A DNA stretch of 48,130 bases. Origin: Bacteroidota bacterium (lineage in GTDB: Bacteria > Bacteroidota > Ignavibacteria > UBA10030 > SZUA-254). Location: assembly GCA_033852415.1 (NCBI GenBank), contig JAWOMQ010000052.1:1-48130 (forward strand), in the 5' to 3' direction. A model generated the notes under the pieces. It did not search any database. It was not told the origin of the DNA and worked only from the letters and a program-made list of their open reading frames with translations. Made by a program: the position numbers and the translations under genes. The stretch's first letter is position 1, and every line of letters starts with the position of its first letter. Below, piece after piece: positions 1 to 23,405 of the stretch.

Positions 1-1
1 T

Positions 2-268
2 TCACAAAATTATCCCAATCCATTTAATCCATCCACTGAAATCCGCTTTGGAGTTCCTGTACCAAGTCATGTGCACTTGACGATTGTCAACGTCCTCGGG
101 CAGAACGTGGGGGAGTTGATGAACGAGGACGTCGTGGCTGGTGTGCACGTCATGGCATGGAGTCCTCAGCTTTCCAGCGGAACCTATTTCTATCGGCTGG
201 AGGCCACAAGTCTGTCTGAACCCCGCCAGATGTTCACGGAAACAAGAAAAGCAATTTTGTTGAGATAA
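2..268 (+). CDS. 3' end of a secreted protein carrying a type-A T9SS (Por) C-terminal sorting domain. The 5' end lies outside the window.
   Basis: Frame 2 is open from the window edge to TAA at 266-268. The translation SQNYPNPFNPSTEIRFGVPVPSHVHLTIVNVLGQNVGELMNEDVVAGVHVMAWSPQLSSGTYFYRLEATS...TRKAILLR fits the classic T9SS CTD pattern (NYPNPFNP..I.F.....V.L.I.N.LGQ.V..L....G.H...W....SG.YFYRL). The ORF track only lists it from the internal Met at 71. Confidence 0.75.
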   Translation, partial: SQNYPNPFNPSTEIRFGVPVPSHVHLTIVNVLGQNVGELMNEDVVAGVHVMAWSPQLSSGTYFYRLEATSLSEPRQMFTETRKAILLR

Positions 269-282
269 GTGCGTTTGACGGA

Positions 283-314
283 CAAAAAGAAAGGGCATCA
301 TAACGATGATGCCC
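283..314 (-). terminator. Intrinsic terminator between the convergent T9SS-CTD gene and the HerA-like gene
   Basis: Perfect 9-bp stem GGGCATCAT/ATGATGCCC (293-301 and 306-314) with a 4-nt loop. On the minus strand it is followed by TTTCTTTTTG (complement of 283-292) and lies 29 nt past the HerA-like stop at 343-345. It may also act weakly on the plus strand. Confidence 0.65.
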
Positions 315-342
315 TGTGTCATTATGCATTCTTGCAGTCTGT

Positions 343-1944
343 TCAGGTCCTGATCTGTCTCCACCAGTTGTTAACGACGTCAGTCACTTCGGTGTTGGCT
401 TCTTTTTTCTGCCATTTGTCAAAGTACTTGATGTCAGCGCTTGCAGGTTCGGGATTTGGCATGTCGATCAACACCCGCACCGGTACAGGAACAGCATCTC
501 CGATAAAATACGCCTCGCCCTGACGAAGCGTGGGAAGAACCTCGATAAGATTTGAGAGGCTGTCGGGGACAAGTTTTCGAATGTACTGTTGATCGTTCGG
601 ATTGAGCAACCGCATCGCAATGAAATTGTTGCATTGCGCAGTGATTGTTTCGGATATCTCAGACGGGCGCTGGCTGACGATCATGCTGCTCACGCCGTAT
701 TTCCGCCCTTCCTTGGCTATCCGTTCAACGGTCTTCCGCGCCGAGGTGCTTCGTCCTGTCATCGAAAGGTAGGTGTGCGCTTCCTCGAAGACGAGGAGAA
801 TAGGAAAATCGTGCCGGTGTTTGTTCCACAAATTGAAATCGAAGACGAGTCGCCCGAGCAATGAAACAAGGACGTTGATCACATCGAAAGGCACACGGCT
901 CAGATCGATGATGGTGATTCTTTTTCCGGAGTCGAGCCCGAACAATTTTGTCAGCAAACTCGCAAACGTGTCGGACGATTTGTAGTGTTTGGGCCGGAAG
1001 ATGAATTCATATCTCTTATCCATCAACTTACTTTCAAGGCGAACGAGGAAACGTGTAAACTGTCCGTAAAATGGTCCCTCTTTTCCACTCAATGTTCGCT
1101 CCGTATCGAGGGATCTCATTCGTGCGCTGACATCCAGAAAATCGAAATAGACCGGTGTATCGATCGTGAGATAATCCTTTAGCGGAAGATTTTTTCCTTT
1201 CTTGGAATCGAGGATGGCTTCCTTTAGTATCATAATCTGGTTGTTCGCGGAACCCTCATTTTCATCGACGAATGTTTCGACAAGTTCGTCAAAATTCATT
1301 AACCAGTAGGGAAGTTCGAGTTCAGTAATTTTAATGACATTTCCGGATTCGTGAAATGCGGGGCCATACTCCCCGTGAAGATCAAGAAGGAGAATATGGG
1401 TATTTTCGAACTTCCCGACCTTCTGCAGAAGGGAAGCTGTCGTGCAGGATTTACCCGAACCGGTAGAGCCAAACAGAGCAATGTGCTTTGCAAAGAATTT
1501 GTTGGGGTTCAAATACATCCGTTCATCCTGAAGCACCGAGATCGTGCCGGGGGAGTATCCATAGACCCGGAACGTGAGGAATATGCTCTTGAGATCTTCC
1601 GCTTGGGCACTGTACACAGCGCTCCCAATCAGCGGATATGTTGAGATGCTGCGTTCAAATTTCCCTTCCGTGACAGTACCGATGAGTTGGATCTCAATGG
1701 TCTGTTTGTGATCCTTCTGTGCTTCCGGAGGAGCTTTTGAGTCCCCGGCGCTAAACTGGCGGACGTTCGTAATGGATCCTACGACAGTTGTATCTCCCTC
1801 GGTCATGACGACGTAACTGCCGAGCCGGCTCGCCGCCGATGAGGCACCATTCGTTAAGATGGCGGAAACAGTCATACTGTTGACAGCCGATATGGTTCCG
1901 ATTTGTTTTGATGAATCTCCCATGGAGATAAAATCCTTTCGCAC
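343..1944 (-). CDS. HerA-like ATPase (FtsK-HerA superfamily, DUF87) with an N-terminal HAS-barrel
   Basis: 533-aa ORF. The HAS-barrel-like N-terminus reads IGTISAVNSMTVSAIL...LGSYVVMTEGDTTVVGSITNV. Walker A is GSTGSGKS (codons at 1447-1470), Walker B is ILLVFEEAH, and an SQRPSEI motif is typical of HerA. The track start at 1944 is GTG, 1 nt after the upstream stop. An ATG at 1923 preceded by AAAGGA is an alternative start. Confidence 0.85.
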   Translation of the reverse strand: MRKDFISMGDSSKQIGTISAVNSMTVSAILTNGASSAASRLGSYVVMTEGDTTVVGSITNVRQFSAGDSKAPPEAQKDHKQTIEIQLIGTVTEGKFERSISTYPLIGSAVYSAQAEDLKSIFLTFRVYGYSPGTISVLQDERMYLNPNKFFAKHIALFGSTGSGKSCTTASLLQKVGKFENTHILLLDLHGEYGPAFHESGNVIKITELELPYWLMNFDELVETFVDENEGSANNQIMILKEAILDSKKGKNLPLKDYLTIDTPVYFDFLDVSARMRSLDTERTLSGKEGPFYGQFTRFLVRLESKLMDKRYEFIFRPKHYKSSDTFASLLTKLFGLDSGKRITIIDLSRVPFDVINVLVSLLGRLVFDFNLWNKHRHDFPILLVFEEAHTYLSMTGRSTSARKTVERIAKEGRKYGVSSMIVSQRPSEISETITAQCNNFIAMRLLNPNDQQYIRKLVPDSLSNLIEVLPTLRQGEAYFIGDAVPVPVRVLIDMPNPEPASADIKYFDKWQKKEANTEVTDVVNNWWRQIRT

Positions 1945-1945
1945 G

Positions 1946-3178
1946 TTATTGATTTCTTTTGATAACTACGAGTGTCTTGTCGTCAGACTGAGCACCCGAA
2001 CTATTAAAAACCTGAACATCCTCCAGAACAAGCTGGGAAATTTCCTTCGGAGATTTGGAGCGGTGTTGCAACAACTGCTGCACGAGTCGATTCTCACCGT
2101 AGAATTCCCCCTGCTCGTTCATGGCTTCCGGAATGCCGTCCGTGTAGAGCACAAGGAGATCCCCCTTTTTCATATGTGTGCTCTCCGTCCTGAATACTTC
2201 GTTCGGGAACGGCCCGAGCATCTGACCGGTCGCATCCAGAAATTCTGGTTGGGATGATTCGGCACGCAGCAAAATTGGCATGTTGTGGCCGCAATTCGCG
2301 TAGATGATGAGCCCACTCTTATCGTTAGTCAGCTCCGCGTAAAAGAGAGAAACAAAATGTTCCTCGGAAAATGTTTTATGCAATAACTTATTGACGCGGG
2401 AGAGCAGGACGGCAATTTTTGTCTGATACTCAAATCCCATCCTGAGCGCCCCGGAAATGTACAACGCCTCGACCGCCGCCGATATTCCCTTGCTTGTCGC
2501 ATCGCCTATGACCACAGCTAACCTTTCGGGATCGTTTTCAAGCTGGAGATAGTCGAAAAAATCACCGCCAACGATTCGCTCAGGGATGGAAATGCCGTAA
2601 CTTTCGTAGGAGTGAAAGCGGATTTCATGCTGGGGAAGGATGCTTTGCTGGATTTCTCGAGCTTTGTCAAGATCGCGCTCAAGGACTTTCGCTTTTTGTT
2701 CAATCCTTTTGTTGCGCAACACCGAGCTCAGTGCGGCACTGATGATATTCAGTGTGGCCGTAATTCCCTCTCCCAATTCATCCGAGTTAAATGCTATAAC
2801 ATACCGAAAAAGCGTGTGACCACGCCAGACCAGCTTTTCACCTACACCCGTGGCTGAATACTTGAAGATGCCCCGTTTCCTGAGGTACTGATCGTTTTCG
2901 TTTGCGAGCACCGTTCTGACCTTCGGTAATTCGAGGAAGAGAGGGTAGTCTTTCAACTTTATTCGGTATTTCGCCCGGATCTGTTCGATATCACCGATCT
3001 GATATAAAAGTTCGTAGCTCCCTGTTTTCGGATCGAACTTCCATAGCCGGCCACCCCTGATTTTTATCTCCTCATTCTGGACAATCTCAACCAGCGCGTG
3101 CTCCAGAAGCTTCTCATCGCTTTCGAATTTCTGCGACCCGAAGGACTCAATTGTCCGATATAACTTACGTAACTGCAT
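1946..3178 (-). CDS. GAF-like sensor domain fused to a PP2C-type (SpoIIE/RsbU family) serine phosphatase
   Basis: 410-aa ORF. The C-terminal half has all the PP2C/SpoIIE metal-binding motifs: GGDFFDY, VIGDATSKG, LVLYTDGIPEA and SDDKTLVVIK. A coiled linker follows the N-terminal region of about 160 aa, which looks GAF-like. The TAA stop at 1946-1948 abuts the HerA-like start. Confidence 0.85.
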   Translation of the reverse strand: MQLRKLYRTIESFGSQKFESDEKLLEHALVEIVQNEEIKIRGGRLWKFDPKTGSYELLYQIGDIEQIRAKYRIKLKDYPLFLELPKVRTVLANENDQYLRKRGIFKYSATGVGEKLVWRGHTLFRYVIAFNSDELGEGITATLNIISAALSSVLRNKRIEQKAKVLERDLDKAREIQQSILPQHEIRFHSYESYGISIPERIVGGDFFDYLQLENDPERLAVVIGDATSKGISAAVEALYISGALRMGFEYQTKIAVLLSRVNKLLHKTFSEEHFVSLFYAELTNDKSGLIIYANCGHNMPILLRAESSQPEFLDATGQMLGPFPNEVFRTESTHMKKGDLLVLYTDGIPEAMNEQGEFYGENRLVQQLLQHRSKSPKEISQLVLEDVQVFNSSGAQSDDKTLVVIKRNQ

Positions 3179-3456
3179 TATCCCTGGCGATGGTCCTTAT
3201 AAAATCAACTAAATGTAGGGTGAAAATCAGTAAAACGCAATCTTTTTGAGAATTTGATAAACCTTCAATCTCATGATTCGAGGGACCACATGGTCAGACA
3301 TATATGGGGATGCAGGTTGGAATGGGGAACCGATGCCTACCGGTTTCAAGAATGGATTCGGGATGAACTTTCCCCGATTTTGCGGGGACTAACTCAATTG
3401 TGCACGGGTGTGGCATGTATATCGTGAAGAAGGTGCCCCCGACTGCCATCTTGAAC

Positions 3457-4125
3457 TCATTCGTGATATTTCTTCTCACCAGCATAAACAGCGAAGGGAA
3501 GATGATCTTCCTTCCTCGGGATCGCGCAGGAATACTTACTGCTGTATGCGCAGTATGGGTTGTAAGCGTCGTTAAAATTGATTGTATAAACGAAATTCGG
3601 ATTCGGTTCTTCTTCCCCGACATCGACGTATCTTCCAACATGATAAGTCTCTCTGCCGGTCGTTTCGTCCGTGAACCAGATCGACAAGGGCTCTTCGATT
3701 CCCGAATGATCGTTCTTTTTGTTTGGGGGATTCTTGTAGACGTTTAAAACGTACTGACGGCCGCCGAAATCGATAAGGAAATAGCCATACCGGATCATTG
3801 GGCGCTCTTCACCCTTGGTTCCAAAAATTGTGACATGTTCGGGGTTCTGATACCGGTTGAGTTTCGATAGAAAGCAATAATTCGAGTCCGGGGGAAACCA
3901 GCTGAGGCCATGGTACTGGATCGAGGTATCCTGTCGGAACGGAGATTCTGGATCATTCCGGAACGATGAGTCCTTCGAAGTTCTATAGGCAATGGTTTCG
4001 GAGAGAAAGTTTTGAGGCAAAGGCCGTCGTGTACAACAGCCCGGTGACACGAGGAGCACCATAAGCCAAAACGCGAAAAAGAAAACAATGTGATTCACCG
4101 TACATTTGAAGACTGGTCGAGCCAC
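3457..4125 (-). CDS. DUF1684 domain protein, probably secreted or a lipoprotein
   Basis: 222-aa ORF. The C-terminal motif FNDAYNPYCAYSSKYSCAIPRKEDHLPFAVYAGEKKY is characteristic of DUF1684. The hydrophobic N-terminus ends in ..SPGC. The track start overlaps the upstream gene by 31 nt, and an alternative Met is at 4062. Confidence 0.72.
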   Translation of the reverse strand: MARPVFKCTVNHIVFFFAFWLMVLLVSPGCCTRRPLPQNFLSETIAYRTSKDSSFRNDPESPFRQDTSIQYHGLSWFPPDSNYCFLSKLNRYQNPEHVTIFGTKGEERPMIRYGYFLIDFGGRQYVLNVYKNPPNKKNDHSGIEEPLSIWFTDETTGRETYHVGRYVDVGEEEPNPNFVYTINFNDAYNPYCAYSSKYSCAIPRKEDHLPFAVYAGEKKYHE

Positions 4126-5084
4126 GTGTCCCCTCCATCGCTTGTCTTAAGAATTGTGGCGTTTGTACCAACGATCCATCCGACTTTTCGGTTGAGAAAC
4201 TGCGCCGAGAAGAAGGTGGCGATTTTGGACGGCTTGATATTGACGAAATGCGCACCACCATCTGATGTCCGTAAAAGTGCGCCGTCAGTTCCGGCCACCC
4301 AACCATACTGGTCATCGACAAACGATAACCCGTATTCAAAATCGCTGGAAAGAAAAGATCCGAGATCTTCGCGAACATGTTGCCTCGACCATGTGATCCC
4401 GCTATTTGTGGTTTTCATGATCGCTCCGTATCCACCGCACACCCAGCCAAGGTTCGAGGTGAGGAATTGAGTCCCAAAAAAGAAACTCGTCAGGCCGCTC
4501 TGGAGAGGGACCCAGTGCGCACCGCTGTCGGTTGTTTTAAGGATGCGTCCGCTGGCCCCTCCTATGAATCCAATCGTCTCCGTCGGGAACGAAACCGACC
4601 AGAGATTGTCTCTCACGCCGCTCGTCATCGCCTTCCACGTATCTCCGCCGTCGCCGGTTTTCAGTATTGTCCCGCCGAATCCGGCAACATAAGCGGTAGA
4701 GCGAGAAAGGAATTGTATGCCGACAAGGTTAACATTAAACGGGGTCTTCTTCATCTTCCAATGAGTTCCTGTGTCACTGGTGATATAAATGGTCCCGTGC
4801 TGTCCGACGATCATCCCATATCGATGCGCGAAAAAAGCTATCCCGTACAACTCGGGTGAATCACCCTTGAGTGGTACTTTGTGCCATTGTGCTCCTCCAT
4901 TGGTTGTGCGGAGTAGAACCGAGGGCTTTCCCACGATGAACGCATTGTCACTATCAAGGGCGCATATGTGTAAATAAGTATCTTCAGGGCCCGGGTTCTT
5001 TCCGGGAACAATTCCCGGAGTAAGCGTTACCTGCGGAAAAGTATTGAGTAAAAACAAAAAGAAAAAATACATTCCAATCTCCAT
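4095..5084 (-). CDS. BNR/Asp-box repeat beta-propeller protein, Ycf48/Hcf136-like
   Basis: 329-aa ORF with six regularly spaced Asp-box motifs (TSDTGTHW, TGDGGDTW, TTDSGAHW, TTNSGITW, TSDGGAHF, TSDGGDTW) and a hydrophobic N-terminal signal. Confidence 0.75.
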   Translation of the reverse strand: MEIGMYFFFLFLLNTFPQVTLTPGIVPGKNPGPEDTYLHICALDSDNAFIVGKPSVLLRTTNGGAQWHKVPLKGDSPELYGIAFFAHRYGMIVGQHGTIYITSDTGTHWKMKKTPFNVNLVGIQFLSRSTAYVAGFGGTILKTGDGGDTWKAMTSGVRDNLWSVSFPTETIGFIGGASGRILKTTDSGAHWVPLQSGLTSFFFGTQFLTSNLGWVCGGYGAIMKTTNSGITWSRQHVREDLGSFLSSDFEYGLSFVDDQYGWVAGTDGALLRTSDGGAHFVNIKPSKIATFFSAQFLNRKVGWIVGTNATILKTSDGGDTWLDQSSNVR

Positions 5085-17694: not shown

Positions 17695-19530
17695 ATGAAT
17701 CAAAACGAACGCCGCATCCTGAACGTTTCCTCCTCTGCCGATCGCGAGAGATCAGCATTGGAGAAATCCGTTGCCCTCGGCCGGTTGATCGAAGGCTCCG
17801 AACTGATGCGGCGCCTTAGCCTCCTGCATGAAATCCAGCTACACATCGACGCGGCGAAGAACCGTGATGAAATATTCTCGATCCTCAGGGGAGAGACAAA
17901 ATGGCTTGTCGATCACGACCTTTGTCTGATGGGATTGGTCAATCGCTCTGCCACGCACTATGTTGTAAACATTATATCGTCCGCGGTTGATCTCAACGAC
18001 ATCAATCATAAACATTTCACACTTGATGAAGGGAGTCTGGGGTGGGTCATCCGCAACCGGACCGCGATGATCGAAGATTTGACCTCCCCGGGAGAAGCGA
18101 CGACAAACAGCATGGGTGCTCGTCTTCGCGCACTCGGAATAACCTCCCTCCTCATAGTGCCGATGCGGATTGAACGAGAGGTGATTGGAGCGCTTGCCTT
18201 CGGATCCCGGAAGCGGGATCCCTACAACGAAGTCGATTCGGGCGTCCTTCAGCTTCTTGCGCACTATTTTTCCGCTGCAATTAAGAACGCGGGGATCTTT
18301 GATGATATCCGCAAGCGGATTTCTCAGATCGAGCTGATCAATGATATTACCCGTAAGCTCACGTCGATGCTCAATCTGGAAGAAGTGCTGAAAACCGCAG
18401 CCACCTCGATCCAGAAGACGTTCAATTATTTTGATGTTACGGTATTTCTTCTTTCCCCCGATAAGAAGGAGCTCATCCTCGAAGCACATGCAGGCAGTTT
18501 TGTCGACTTCTTACCACATGGATACCACCAACAGGTAACCCGGGGAATCGTCGGATGGGTTGCGACGCACGGAACGAAAGTCCTTTGCAATGATGTCGCG
18601 CAGGATGCGAGGTATGTAACCTATGAGTATCATAACACGCGTTCCGAGCTCACACTTCCAATTAAAGTCGAGAATGAGGTTGTGGGGATCCTGAATGTCG
18701 AGGATACAAAACTTCATGCGTTTGATGAAACCGATGCGATGGTGCTTGAGACGCTGTCTGACCAGCTCGGTATTATTATCCGCAATGCGAAGCTGTATGA
18801 CGACATCCGCCAGGCGAACATGAAACTGACGGAACTCGACAAAATGAAATCGGAGTTTCTTGGCATTGTGTCGCACGACTTCCGGTCGCCTTTGTCGAGT
18901 ATTATTCTAGCTGGCAAGTCACTCCTCAAGAATGAGACCGTGCAAAGTATTAAACGGCTGAAGGAGTATCTCCAGATAATCGTCGACCAGGCAAACCGGC
19001 TGCATCAGCTTGCAGAGGATACGCTTTCCATTACCAAGATGGAGGCTGGACGACTGAATTATCACTTCAAAATAGTGAATGTGGGAAGATTGTTTGACGA
19101 CGCGATTTCCATGGTGAGATTGTCGAATCGGCATCAAATTCGATATGATGTTCATCCTGACGTTGCATTCATCAAGGGAGATCACTCGAAATTACGCCAG
19201 GTCATTCAGAACCTCGTCAGCAACGCGGTGAAATATTCACCCGGGGGTGGAAATATAGTTGTCGCGGCGCGACCTCACTCCGGCGATCAGATCTTGGTCA
19301 CAATTTCGGATGAAGGGATCGGTGTCCCGGCGGAGAAAATTGAGAAACTTTTTCAAAAATTCTCCCGTGTTGATTCTCCCGAAGCGAACCAGATCAAAGG
19401 AGCAGGATTGGGTCTGTGGATTTGCAGGGAAATCGTGGAGGCGCATGGAGGGAAAATCTGGCTTGAGAGCCAGGTCGGAAAAGGGACAACTGTGTTCCTT
19501 ACGTTGAATATTGCTCAGCCTTCAGGCTGA
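17695..19530 (+). CDS. Cytoplasmic sensor histidine kinase with two GAF domains
   Basis: 611-aa ORF. The H-box is SHDFRSPL, the N-box is NLVSNAVKYSP, and the G-boxes are DEGIGV and GAGLGLWICREIVEAHGGKIWLES. There are two GAF-like regions upstream and no TM segments. It starts 7 nt after the purM stop. Confidence 0.9.
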   Translation: MNQNERRILNVSSSADRERSALEKSVALGRLIEGSELMRRLSLLHEIQLHIDAAKNRDEIFSILRGETKWLVDHDLCLMGLVNRSATHYVVNIISSAVDLNDINHKHFTLDEGSLGWVIRNRTAMIEDLTSPGEATTNSMGARLRALGITSLLIVPMRIEREVIGALAFGSRKRDPYNEVDSGVLQLLAHYFSAAIKNAGIFDDIRKRISQIELINDITRKLTSMLNLEEVLKTAATSIQKTFNYFDVTVFLLSPDKKELILEAHAGSFVDFLPHGYHQQVTRGIVGWVATHGTKVLCNDVAQDARYVTYEYHNTRSELTLPIKVENEVVGILNVEDTKLHAFDETDAMVLETLSDQLGIIIRNAKLYDDIRQANMKLTELDKMKSEFLGIVSHDFRSPLSSIILAGKSLLKNETVQSIKRLKEYLQIIVDQANRLHQLAEDTLSITKMEAGRLNYHFKIVNVGRLFDDAISMVRLSNRHQIRYDVHPDVAFIKGDHSKLRQVIQNLVSNAVKYSPGGGNIVVAARPHSGDQILVTISDEGIGVPAEKIEKLFQKFSRVDSPEANQIKGAGLGLWICREIVEAHGGKIWLESQVGKGTTVFLTLNIAQPSG

Positions 19531-21974: not shown

Positions 21975-23405
21975 TCATCCCTTCAGTGTAAAATGAAACG
22001 TCGTTCCAACCCCCACTGTGCTTTCCACCTGAATTGTACTTCCGTGCGCTTCGATGATGTGTTTTGCGATGGCAAGCCCCAAACCTGTACCTCCTGCTTC
22101 ACGCGAACGTTCCTTGTCGACCCTGTAAAACCGTTCGAATATTCTGGGGAGATGTTGTGGAGAGATTCCGGGCCCGGTGTCCTGCACCGCTATTGTGACC
22201 TGGTCGGGACGGGGTTCCATCGAAACCGTTACGCTTCCCTTTTCAGCCGTATACTTGATAGCGTTATCAATAAGGTTGTTCATCACTTGCCTCAGACGCT
22301 CTCTGTCACCTAAGGCTTCCGTTTTTCCACGCATCGGTGTGTAGGTTAGTGTAATCTCCTTTTTTGCAGCCTCAGGAAGAAACTCAGCGACAATAACGCG
22401 AAGAAATTCATCGGCATCAAAATAACGGAAACTCATTTTCATATCGCCGGATTCGATTCTCGAGATTTCAATCAGATCGCTGAGTAACGTTCCCAGCCGG
22501 CGGGTGTTTCGAAGTGCCCGTTCGATGAAATCCCTCCTCACGTCCTTATCGTCAAGCGCCCCGCCGAGAAGCGTCTCCAGTAACCCTTGAATAGCAAAAA
22601 TCGGCGTTCGGAGTTCATGCGATACGTTACCCAGAAATTCGCTCCGCACCCGTTCAAGCTTCTTCAGCTGACCGATGTCATTGTTTAGGCGGTCAATCAT
22701 GTCGTTCAATGTCTGACCTAACTGACCGAGCTCGTCATTTGTTGTGACTGGGATACGGAGATCCAGGTTTCCATTCCGGATCCTGTTGACAGTCTCATTC
22801 ATTGTGCGCACGGGCAGGGTCATTCGGTGGGCGACGAAAAGACTGATACAGCCGATGACCACGAGAATGATGACGCTGATAAAAATAATATTCGATCGGA
22901 CCTCTGCCAACCGCATATTCACCATGGTGAGTGGTAATCCCACGCGGACAATCGCGATACTGTCACTGCCGTAAGTGAGTTTTTCAGTCGCGAGCTTGGC
23001 AACATAGAGCATTTCAATGTCCAGCGTAGTACTGTGGCGTACGCTCACCCCCGAGCCAGAAGTGATTGCTTCCACTATTTCGGGCCTGTTTCTGTGATTT
23101 TCCAGAGTCTGTAACCCTGATTGTGGCAGCTCGGATTCAAAGATCACCGCTCCGTCCTCCCTGATGAGGGTCAGACGGACATCAGATGCATGCACGAGCC
23201 GTTGGATGAAGGCATAGGAGGCACTGTCATTGCTTCCATTTTGGCTGATAAGAGATTCAAACACCGTTGCTTGGGTGCTCAATTCATCGACCATCCTGTC
23301 CCGGTAGTAATTCCCAAGTGTGACAATCGAAAAGTAGCCAGCCACAAAGACAATGACCGCGCTCAGGACAATGAGCAAGAGGCTGAGTTTCGTGCGTATT
23401 TTCAT
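21975..23405 (-). CDS. Membrane sensor histidine kinase, PhoR-like (two TM segments, HAMP, HisKA, HATPase_c)
   Basis: 476-aa ORF. TM1 is LSLLLIVLSAVIVFVAGYF and TM2 is IIFISVIILVVIGCISLFVA. The H-box is SHELRTPI, the N-box is NLIDNAIKYT, and the G-boxes are DTGPGI and GGTGLGLAIAKHIIEAHG. The PhoR assignment rests on genomic context with PiT, DUF47 and the OmpR-family regulator. Confidence 0.9.
   Translation of the reverse strand: MKIRTKLSLLLIVLSAVIVFVAGYFSIVTLGNYYRDRMVDELSTQATVFESLISQNGSNDSASYAFIQRLVHASDVRLTLIREDGAVIFESELPQSGLQTLENHRNRPEIVEAITSGSGVSVRHSTTLDIEMLYVAKLATEKLTYGSDSIAIVRVGLPLTMVNMRLAEVRSNIIFISVIILVVIGCISLFVAHRMTLPVRTMNETVNRIRNGNLDLRIPVTTNDELGQLGQTLNDMIDRLNNDIGQLKKLERVRSEFLGNVSHELRTPIFAIQGLLETLLGGALDDKDVRRDFIERALRNTRRLGTLLSDLIEISRIESGDMKMSFRYFDADEFLRVIVAEFLPEAAKKEITLTYTPMRGKTEALGDRERLRQVMNNLIDNAIKYTAEKGSVTVSMEPRPDQVTIAVQDTGPGISPQHLPRIFERFYRVDKERSREAGGTGLGLAIAKHIIEAHGSTIQVESTVGVGTTFHFTLKG

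Follow-up and report, generated by a model that had tools for sequence, protein, structure and literature searches.

A conserved gene pair encoding a GAF-PP2C phosphatase and a HerA-family ATPase in the core chromosome of an Ignavibacteria lineage

The DNA analysed here (the window) comprises 48,130 nucleotides of contig JAWOMQ010000052.1, from assembly GCA_033852415.1 of a Bacteroidota bacterium placed in the class Ignavibacteria. At one end of the window two minus-strand genes, spanning 343-3178 in the list of open reading frames (ORFs), encode a protein phosphatase of the PP2C type and an ATPase of the HerA family. A preliminary description, made from the sequence alone, had presented this pair as a candidate HerA-partner system, possibly of anti-phage function, and had offered housekeeping signalling as a fallback. 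The features of the locus are as follows.

1946-3178, minus strand: GAF-linker-PP2C (SpoIIE/RsbU-type) protein phosphatase gene, 410 aa, assigned from the SpoIIE profile, invariant metal-binding aspartates and structure matches
2729-3178, minus strand: predicted N-terminal GAF-fold sensor, residues 1-150, from an AlphaFold model and Foldseek
2639-2770, minus strand: linker helix, residues ~137-180, which in the full-length model joins the sensor to the catalytic domain
1955-2629, minus strand: PP2C catalytic domain, residues ~184-408, with motifs GGDFFDY, GDATSKG, YTDG and SDDKT
343-1923, minus strand: HerA-family ATPase gene, 526 aa from the ATG at 1923, assigned from DUF87, the PADLOC HerA model, solved relatives and motifs
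3209-3239, minus strand: promoter-like element TTGCGT-N17-TACATTTA, ending 30 nt 5′ of the PP2C ATG and conserved in orthologous loci
283-315, minus strand: intrinsic terminator, a hairpin at 315-292 (AGGGCATCATCGTTATGATGCCCT) followed by a T-tract, shortly 3′ of the HerA stop codon

The ORF list and the sequence agree with the junction as first described, in which the PP2C stop codon lies 1 nt from a GTG start of HerA or 22 nt from an ATG start. The GTG at 1944 would give a gene at 343-1944 and a protein of 533 aa, with seven extra residues that are missing from both the called product (P0001) and the homologue N-terminal consensus, MxxxKxIGxIxSV. Since P0001 starts at the ATG and this start fits the homologue N-terminus, the true PP2C-HerA gap is probably 22 nt. 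The Walker A lysine, quoted in the preliminary description as K165, carries that number only when counted from the GTG; from the favoured ATG it is K158. Across 48 orthologous PP2C-HerA pairs the intergenic gap has a median of ~21 nt (range -16 to 72). The terminator, originally placed at 283-314, was recovered by a terminator scan with a 10-bp stem, five of whose pairs are G-C, and the tail TTCTTTTTGT. On the other side the 278-nt gap upstream of PP2C (3179-3456) is real, and the gene beyond it encodes a DUF1684 protein. PP2C and HerA very probably form a self-contained transcription unit and are co-transcribed.

Conservation was assessed in 80 species-representative genomes that carry a relative of the window HerA. 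In about 50 of the 80 the gene immediately before HerA is PP2C, at HerA identities from 80% down to 49%, and all of these linked genomes are Ignavibacteria or Bacteroidota metagenome-assembled genomes. In clade A, which includes the window, the order is BNR-BNR-DUF1684-PP2C-HerA followed by variable convergent genes; in clade B it is surE-mutS-DinB-family-DUF3109-PP2C-HerA, and a further locus (L083) reads EF-P-DUF1684-PP2C-HerA. Locus L084 is rearranged into HerA, an opposite-strand asparaginase gene and PP2C, with the two genes still 1.3 kb apart. A pair that lasts through turnover of both flanks is a classical sign of selected linkage; since the adjacency is kept to ~50% HerA identity while the flanks differ between clades, the comparison argues for a functional operon. 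The preliminary description had proposed to test whether the pairing holds across unrelated phyla and would have given up its proposal if the pairing stopped at close relatives. The adjacency does extend beyond close relatives, to ~49% HerA identity, but not to unrelated phyla. As it is limited, in the collections searched, to one Ignavibacteria lineage, that ground for giving up the proposal therefore applies in part.

Clade B (L029-L048; for example L029, 6277-9265) also has conserved same-strand genes after HerA that lack a clear Pfam family: cluster 25 (~375 aa), cluster 6 (~155 aa) and cluster 3 (~427 aa, with a weak DivIC-like coiled coil). They are missing from clade A and may extend the operon in clade B.

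The proposed promoter, TTGCGT-N17-TACATT, runs on the minus strand from TTGCGT (3239-3234) through a 17-nt spacer to TACATT (3216-3211). As a sigma-70 promoter it is weak, matching ~7 of 12 consensus positions by hand count, and a sigma-70 scan with a threshold of 9 of 12 matches did not call it. What speaks for it is conservation: the pattern TTG..TTT..TC..TACATT is at least 80% conserved at the equivalent position in ~20 aligned orthologous upstream regions, and since it recurs at the same position in these loci the element appears to be more than chance. The form TACATTTG lies 36-45 nt before the start codon in ten loci and at -15 in an eleventh, and locus L017 has TAAATTTG at -36. Primary-sigma promoters of Bacteroidota carry TTTG at -33 and TAnnTTTG at -7, and the conserved element resembles this type. 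In many orthologous loci it directly follows the stop codon of the upstream gene. These patterns suggest that the PP2C-HerA unit has its own conserved promoter. The 278-nt gap of the window holds roughly 190 nt more than many orthologous loci do; an Rfam scan of window positions 1-4300 for regulatory RNA in this leader gave no match at E up to 1.

The first gene encodes a phosphatase whose catalytic domain matches Pfam SpoIIE (PF07228, E = 1.7e-44, residues 217-408). Six metal-binding aspartates (D206, D209, D226, D347, D399 and D400) are invariant in 60 PP2C orthologues, and the predicted fold matches the C-terminal domain of Pseudomonas aeruginosa RssB, SiaA, the RsbU-like domain of Rv1364c, and SpoIIE. 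All of the motifs originally quoted for the phosphatase, and likewise those for HerA, are present, and the phosphatase looks catalytically competent as judged from them. The GAF-like sensor placed in front of this domain escaped sequence profiles but was borne out by structure prediction. The Pfam scan of the phosphatase left the GAF profile unmatched, and a profile of the N-terminal domain found nothing among PDB sequences at E up to 10. In contrast, the AlphaFold model of residues 1-150 alone (pLDDT 81, pTM 0.79) has a GAF fold, and its top 50 Foldseek matches in the PDB are all GAF domains (3ci6, 5w10, phytochromes; TM 0.45-0.73, best E = 5.6e-5). The full-length model was discarded as a route to the identity of this domain, its Foldseek matches being swamped by the PP2C domain. 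Against 1.84 billion representative proteins the N-terminal profile gave only 81 matches, and every full-length match is a protein of ~400-448 aa with the domain at residues 1-150. The N-terminal domain is thus modelled as a divergent GAF fold private to one orthogroup, with ligand binding as a prediction only. SpoIIE-family phosphatases are switched by oligomerisation via a linker helix; the corresponding helix is of low confidence in the full-length model, with pLDDT below 50 for residues 159-180.

Among characterised phosphatases, those of the RsbU/RsbP/SpoIIE type (also SiaA and P. aeruginosa RssB) share with the window protein the PF07228 domain, all metal-binding aspartates and an N-terminal regulator attached through a long helix. 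Unlike these partner-switching enzymes, the window operon and the conserved neighbourhoods, taken over more than 80 loci, hold no STAS substrate or anti-sigma kinase, the sensor is an orthogroup-specific divergent GAF, and the operon partner is a HerA ATPase. In line with the preliminary description, phmmer searches of the window at E up to 10, with hand-typed Bacillus subtilis seed sequences, found no STAS or RsbW-like (anti-sigma kinase) ORFs.

The second gene encodes an ATPase that falls in the HerA clade rather than with VirB4 or FtsK, as had been proposed. Pfam PF01935 (DUF87/HerA) matches at E = 1.2e-33 (117.5 bits, cutoff 23.2), while FtsK, TrwB and VirB4 profiles match only marginally. 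Walker A (GSTGSGKS), Walker B (LLVFEEAH), EGRKYG and SQRPSEI are found and are conserved in all clades; the ATPase is a true HerA, and on these motifs it looks catalytically competent. The claim of a HAS-barrel N-terminus fails at the Pfam cutoff (16.7 against 25.2 bits) but gains support from alignment with a solved HerA: the family profile and 8xau give a single end-to-end alignment, query 9-527 to chain 10-570. Because this alignment runs from residue 9 to the C-terminus, the N-terminal region is probably homologous to the HAS-barrel of the solved protein despite the sub-threshold Pfam score. The PADLOC HerA model covers residues 11-531 (E = 8e-156).

Among solved proteins the ATPase matches best the HerA subunits of DUF4297-HerA complexes (9c1m, 8ziq and 8xau; phmmer ~1e-96), to which the profile match is 2.5e-134, full length for 8xau. 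Next comes the HerA of the SIR2-HerA complex 8wiv (E = 1.4e-70), and the archaeal repair HerA 4d2i is a much weaker match (3e-35). PDB entries 9c1m, 8ziq, 8xau and 8wiv were assigned to complexes from published papers. In a midpoint-rooted tree (built, like the PP2C tree, by simple neighbour joining and lacking support values) the HerAs of Ignavibacteria branch as sister to DUF4297-HerA proteins from plasmids (37-39% identity), and they lie nearer to these defence-type HerAs than to the alphaproteobacterial solo forms. The window HerA branch therefore appears to be sister to the motors of DUF4297-HerA and SIR2-HerA anti-phage systems.

Known HerA systems fill the slot upstream of HerA with DUF4297, SIR2 or NurA, and at this locus the phosphatase occupies it, as the preliminary description had noted. 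DUF4297-HerA shares the layout most closely, with a ~400-aa partner immediately upstream on the same strand. Its partner is a Cap4-like DUF4297 nuclease, whereas that of the window is a GAF-PP2C phosphatase; it is mobile or sits in islands, whereas the window locus is chromosomal core and vertically inherited. The window HerA, unlike DUF4297-HerA by that criterion, also falls short of the NCBIfam anti-phage equivalog cutoff. SIR2-HerA (Nezha-type; 8wiv, with 8j4u/8su9 probably of the same type) has in common the HerA family, with a RecA-like core and, on the window side, a probable HAS-barrel, and an upstream partner; the window locus differs in having no SIR2 NADase, a HerA that matches less closely than the DUF4297 type, and a context that is not defence-related. 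Solo HerAs of the same family (Ignavibacteria sucD-HerA-ndk, ~50% identity; Sphingomonadales Alph_Pro_TM-HerA, 32-35%) have intact motifs and sit in the core chromosome like the window protein but lack a PP2C neighbour, and in those of Ignavibacteria the fifth Walker A residue is Ala in place of Ser. The PP2C-HerA pairing is not described in PADLOC-DB v2 or in the literature searched (HerA with PP2C, SpoIIE or phosphatase), which bears out the earlier suggestion that it was uncatalogued. PP2C is a new candidate partner in the two-gene HerA theme, found in only one lineage of the collections searched.

This kinship raises the question of defence. The pair could be an anti-phage or anti-plasmid system in which a HerA hexamer scaffolds a PP2C effector, or in which PP2C removes phosphates added by phage kinases, and which has become vertically fixed. 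Such a role would suit the nearness of HerA to the DUF4297-HerA and SIR2-HerA motors and the effector-like size and spacing of PP2C in the effector slot; moreover, a phage kinase is reported to counteract both SIR2-HerA and DUF4297-HerA (PMC13645617). The PADLOC HerA score was rejected as evidence, since solo sucD-ndk HerAs score alike with the same model (521 and 517 against 518 bits). The NCBIfam equivalogs for anti-phage HerA are below cutoff (NF042944, 434.6 bits against 850; NF042943, 181.7 against 800), PP2C has no match in PADLOC-DB v2, and a scan of viral contigs with PP2C gave none. PADLOC found no credible defence match in the window neighbourhood; its sole match in the region, a weak one to PDC-M43B at 5e-09, maps to the HATPase_c part of one of the histidine kinases. 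The GC content of the window is uniform (0.47-0.52), which agrees with the earlier remark that base composition is not foreign. Across loci the contexts of the pair and of HerA are core chromosome (valS, mutS, surE, sucD, ndk) with long-conserved synteny, and they hold no defence genes, plasmids or viral contigs, so that a placement in defence islands is not borne out. Both proteins are highly conserved and of constant length, unlike fast-evolving, patchy defence genes, and a phosphatase effector has no obvious abortive-infection activity. We regard a defence function as improbable.

The plasmid relatives of this HerA comprise 666 records at 34-37% identity, and the two annotated examples inspected prove to be DUF4297-HerA pairs, surrounded by genes for integrases, toxin-antitoxin systems and other helicases/ATPases. 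On a Peribacillus frigoritolerans plasmid (L086, 2698-5674) a HerA of 36% identity overlaps an upstream 403-aa hypothetical protein, and a gene for an N-6 DNA methylase follows ~1 kb downstream; the locus probably holds a HerA partner or defence system that has escaped annotation. From the trees and contexts, one branch of the defence-type motor family seems to have become fixed in the core chromosome.

The least probable of the readings considered is that HerA serves DNA repair, in end resection of the NurA-HerA type, under the control of the phosphatase. The NurA-HerA systems of archaea and Deinococcus-Thermus (4d2i) share with the window a HerA hexameric translocase and an adjacent partner gene, HerA is established as a DNA translocase in archaeal repair, and in clade B the pair adjoins mutS and a DinB-family gene. 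Yet the mutS linkage is missing from clade A, and no NurA-like gene was found among the Pfam-scanned neighbours of the loci examined, as the preliminary description had found for the window. The repair HerA equivalogs of NCBIfam stay well short of their cutoffs (144 against 800 and 123 against 970), and 4d2i (3e-35) is far more distant than the anti-phage HerAs.

The pair is a lineage-specific, chromosomally fixed Ignavibacteria operon, and we hold with moderate confidence that its products act together, as regulator and motor, in stress physiology or housekeeping. As the pair is fixed in the core chromosome of one lineage, housekeeping or stress signalling is likelier than a mobile anti-phage system; the fallback of the preliminary description is, on core-chromosome context and conserved synteny, the better reading. 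Its wider proposal of a general HerA-partner or defence system is not supported, given a single lineage in the collections searched, a single origin, the core context and the separability of the genes.

The phylogenies bear on origin and separability. In the PP2C tree all HerA-linked PP2Cs fall in one crown clade, to which successive outgroups are unlinked; the HerA tree shows the linked clades as paraphyletic with respect to the two lineages that are unlinked. The simplest history would be that GAF-PP2C is an old core gene which HerA joined once, the link being broken later at least twice. An uncoupled locus (L113) that falls inside the HerA-linked PP2C clade appears to be a further uncoupling. 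Within the collections searched, the pairing is thus placed as arising once, in one Ignavibacteria lineage.

Several observations weigh against a working partnership between the two proteins. These can be summarised as (i) HerA clade C (sucD-HerA-ndk-NUDIX) and locus L081 have no PP2C within ~6 kb; (ii) none of 34 deeper full-length GAF-PP2C orthologue loci, taken from a metagenome scan that started from the most divergent GAF-PP2Cs, has HerA in the retrieved flanks (which for ~20 loci extend at least 4 kb downstream); (iii) the surroundings of the pair hold no conserved kinase, STAS protein or other phospho-substrate; (iv) by domain-wise identity, linked against unlinked, the HAS-barrel region is not more diverged in the clade that lost PP2C; (v) positions that discriminate linked from unlinked HerAs number 2 of 198, against ~0.9 expected by chance, and are not significant overall. 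Because the HAS-barrel shows no extra divergence where the PP2C neighbour is lost, it gives no signal of docking co-evolution.

These points would fit an adjacency that is historical, left by an ancestral rearrangement, with the target of PP2C elsewhere (for example in partner switching or metabolism) and HerA doing a separate DNA or nucleoprotein job. We consider this possible but on the unlikely side. Both genes occur apart in related lineages, apparently working without the other as neighbour; the pairing has a single origin; and the PP2C family, which predates the pairing, is without exception found among housekeeping genes. A purely historical adjacency would nevertheless have to account for a linkage that survived to ~50% identity while the genes on both sides were replaced, for PP2C-HerA gaps that stay very short, and for the L084 genes, which were rearranged and are still neighbours. 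The gene order also mirrors that of every characterised HerA-partner system.

In the unlinked GAF-PP2C loci the neighbours are all housekeeping genes (dapA, aspS, brkB, gcvH, rnfC and an M64 peptidase gene), and no STAS or kinase neighbour was found there. For this reason they were dropped as pointers to the substrate. Within L089-L122 (for example L096, 199-1092, and L101, 5085-5978), dapA, encoding DHDPS, lies immediately upstream of the HerA-less GAF-PP2C in 11 loci and two genes away in L098; aspS lies downstream in two. For the unlinked HerAs, Sphingomonadales relatives adjoin Alph_Pro_TM, and two Defluviicoccus loci adjoin a TENA/THI-4-family gene. In L081 (1-9620), whose HerA is 56% identical and PP2C-less, HerA follows a large signalling cluster (a Peripla_BP-PAS histidine kinase, a response regulator (RR) with an HDOD domain, a PAS histidine kinase, an RR-HD protein, two single-domain response regulators and a 123-aa ORF) and is followed by a BrkB-family gene; in L109 and L110 a BrkB gene likewise immediately precedes the unlinked GAF-PP2C. 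L081 thus links this HerA clade with phospho-signalling a second time, independently of PP2C.

One residue follows the linkage. At Walker A position 5 (Ser163 in GTG numbering, Ser156 in ATG numbering; window 1456-1458) all PP2C-linked clades have Ser, as do L084 and the DUF4297-type HerAs, and both unlinked Ignavibacteria lineages (L049-L062 and L081) have Ala. This Ser-to-Ala change is the only one of 198 conserved positions at which both unlinked lineages have the same derived residue. The serine is a speculative candidate phospho-site, a single site picked out post hoc with weak statistics.

For the regulator-plus-motor operon we propose the following model, in which we infer that the two proteins are coupled, physically or functionally, as well as the direction of that coupling and the phosphosite. 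The first gene would supply a small-molecule-sensing GAF domain joined to a SpoIIE/RsbU-type PP2C serine/threonine phosphatase, an old core gene of the group. The second would supply an intact HerA hexameric ATPase, a predicted ring, joined to the phosphatase once and retained. Binding of a ligand to the GAF domain would switch on PP2C through the linker helix, and PP2C would then act on or with the HerA ring. It might strip an inhibitory phosphate from HerA or from a HerA-bound client, with Walker A Ser163/156 as a speculative site. Alternatively, it might dock on the HAS-barrel face as known HerA partners do; to our knowledge, every characterised partner is encoded upstream and binds that face.

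Two more specific forms of coupling seem rather improbable to us: that the pair is a domesticated descendant of HerA-effector immunity in which the ring activates the phosphatase, or that PP2C keeps HerA active by dephosphorylation, for example of the Walker A serine. Under the former, a signalling enzyme would for the first time fill the effector slot of a HerA module, a place otherwise taken by a nuclease or NADase; the latter would tie in with the reports of phage kinases disarming HerA defence.

In the systems known, HerA rings drive or scaffold nucleases (NurA, DUF4297) and NADases (SIR2). If the stable operon with a ligand-sensing phosphatase is functional, phospho-signalling would be added to the HerA partners; if the genes are not functionally coupled, this is merely a lineage-specific operon of two ordinary enzymes. 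The pair would also be a clear case of a fixed core gene from a defence-type motor family, which bears on the exchange of parts between immunity and housekeeping machinery. Its single origin and the naturally uncoupled lineages provide built-in comparative controls, and the Walker A Ser/Ala difference is a testable lead.

Beyond the pair, the window encodes ValS (valyl-tRNA synthetase), an SDR protein, M49 and M23 peptidases, an FAA hydrolase, an AIR-synthase-like protein, an MFS transporter and two histidine kinases. The kinases lie 15-20 kb from the pair: a tandem-GAF-HisKA-HATPase protein (17695-19530, plus strand), which gives the PDC-M43B match, and a HAMP protein (21975-23405, minus strand), with no evidence of a link to the pair. 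On the other side of the operon, a plus-strand ORF (1-268) converges with its 3′ end on the HerA terminator, and its C-terminus (...GTYFYRLEATS...) resembles, by eye only, a type IX secretion sorting domain.

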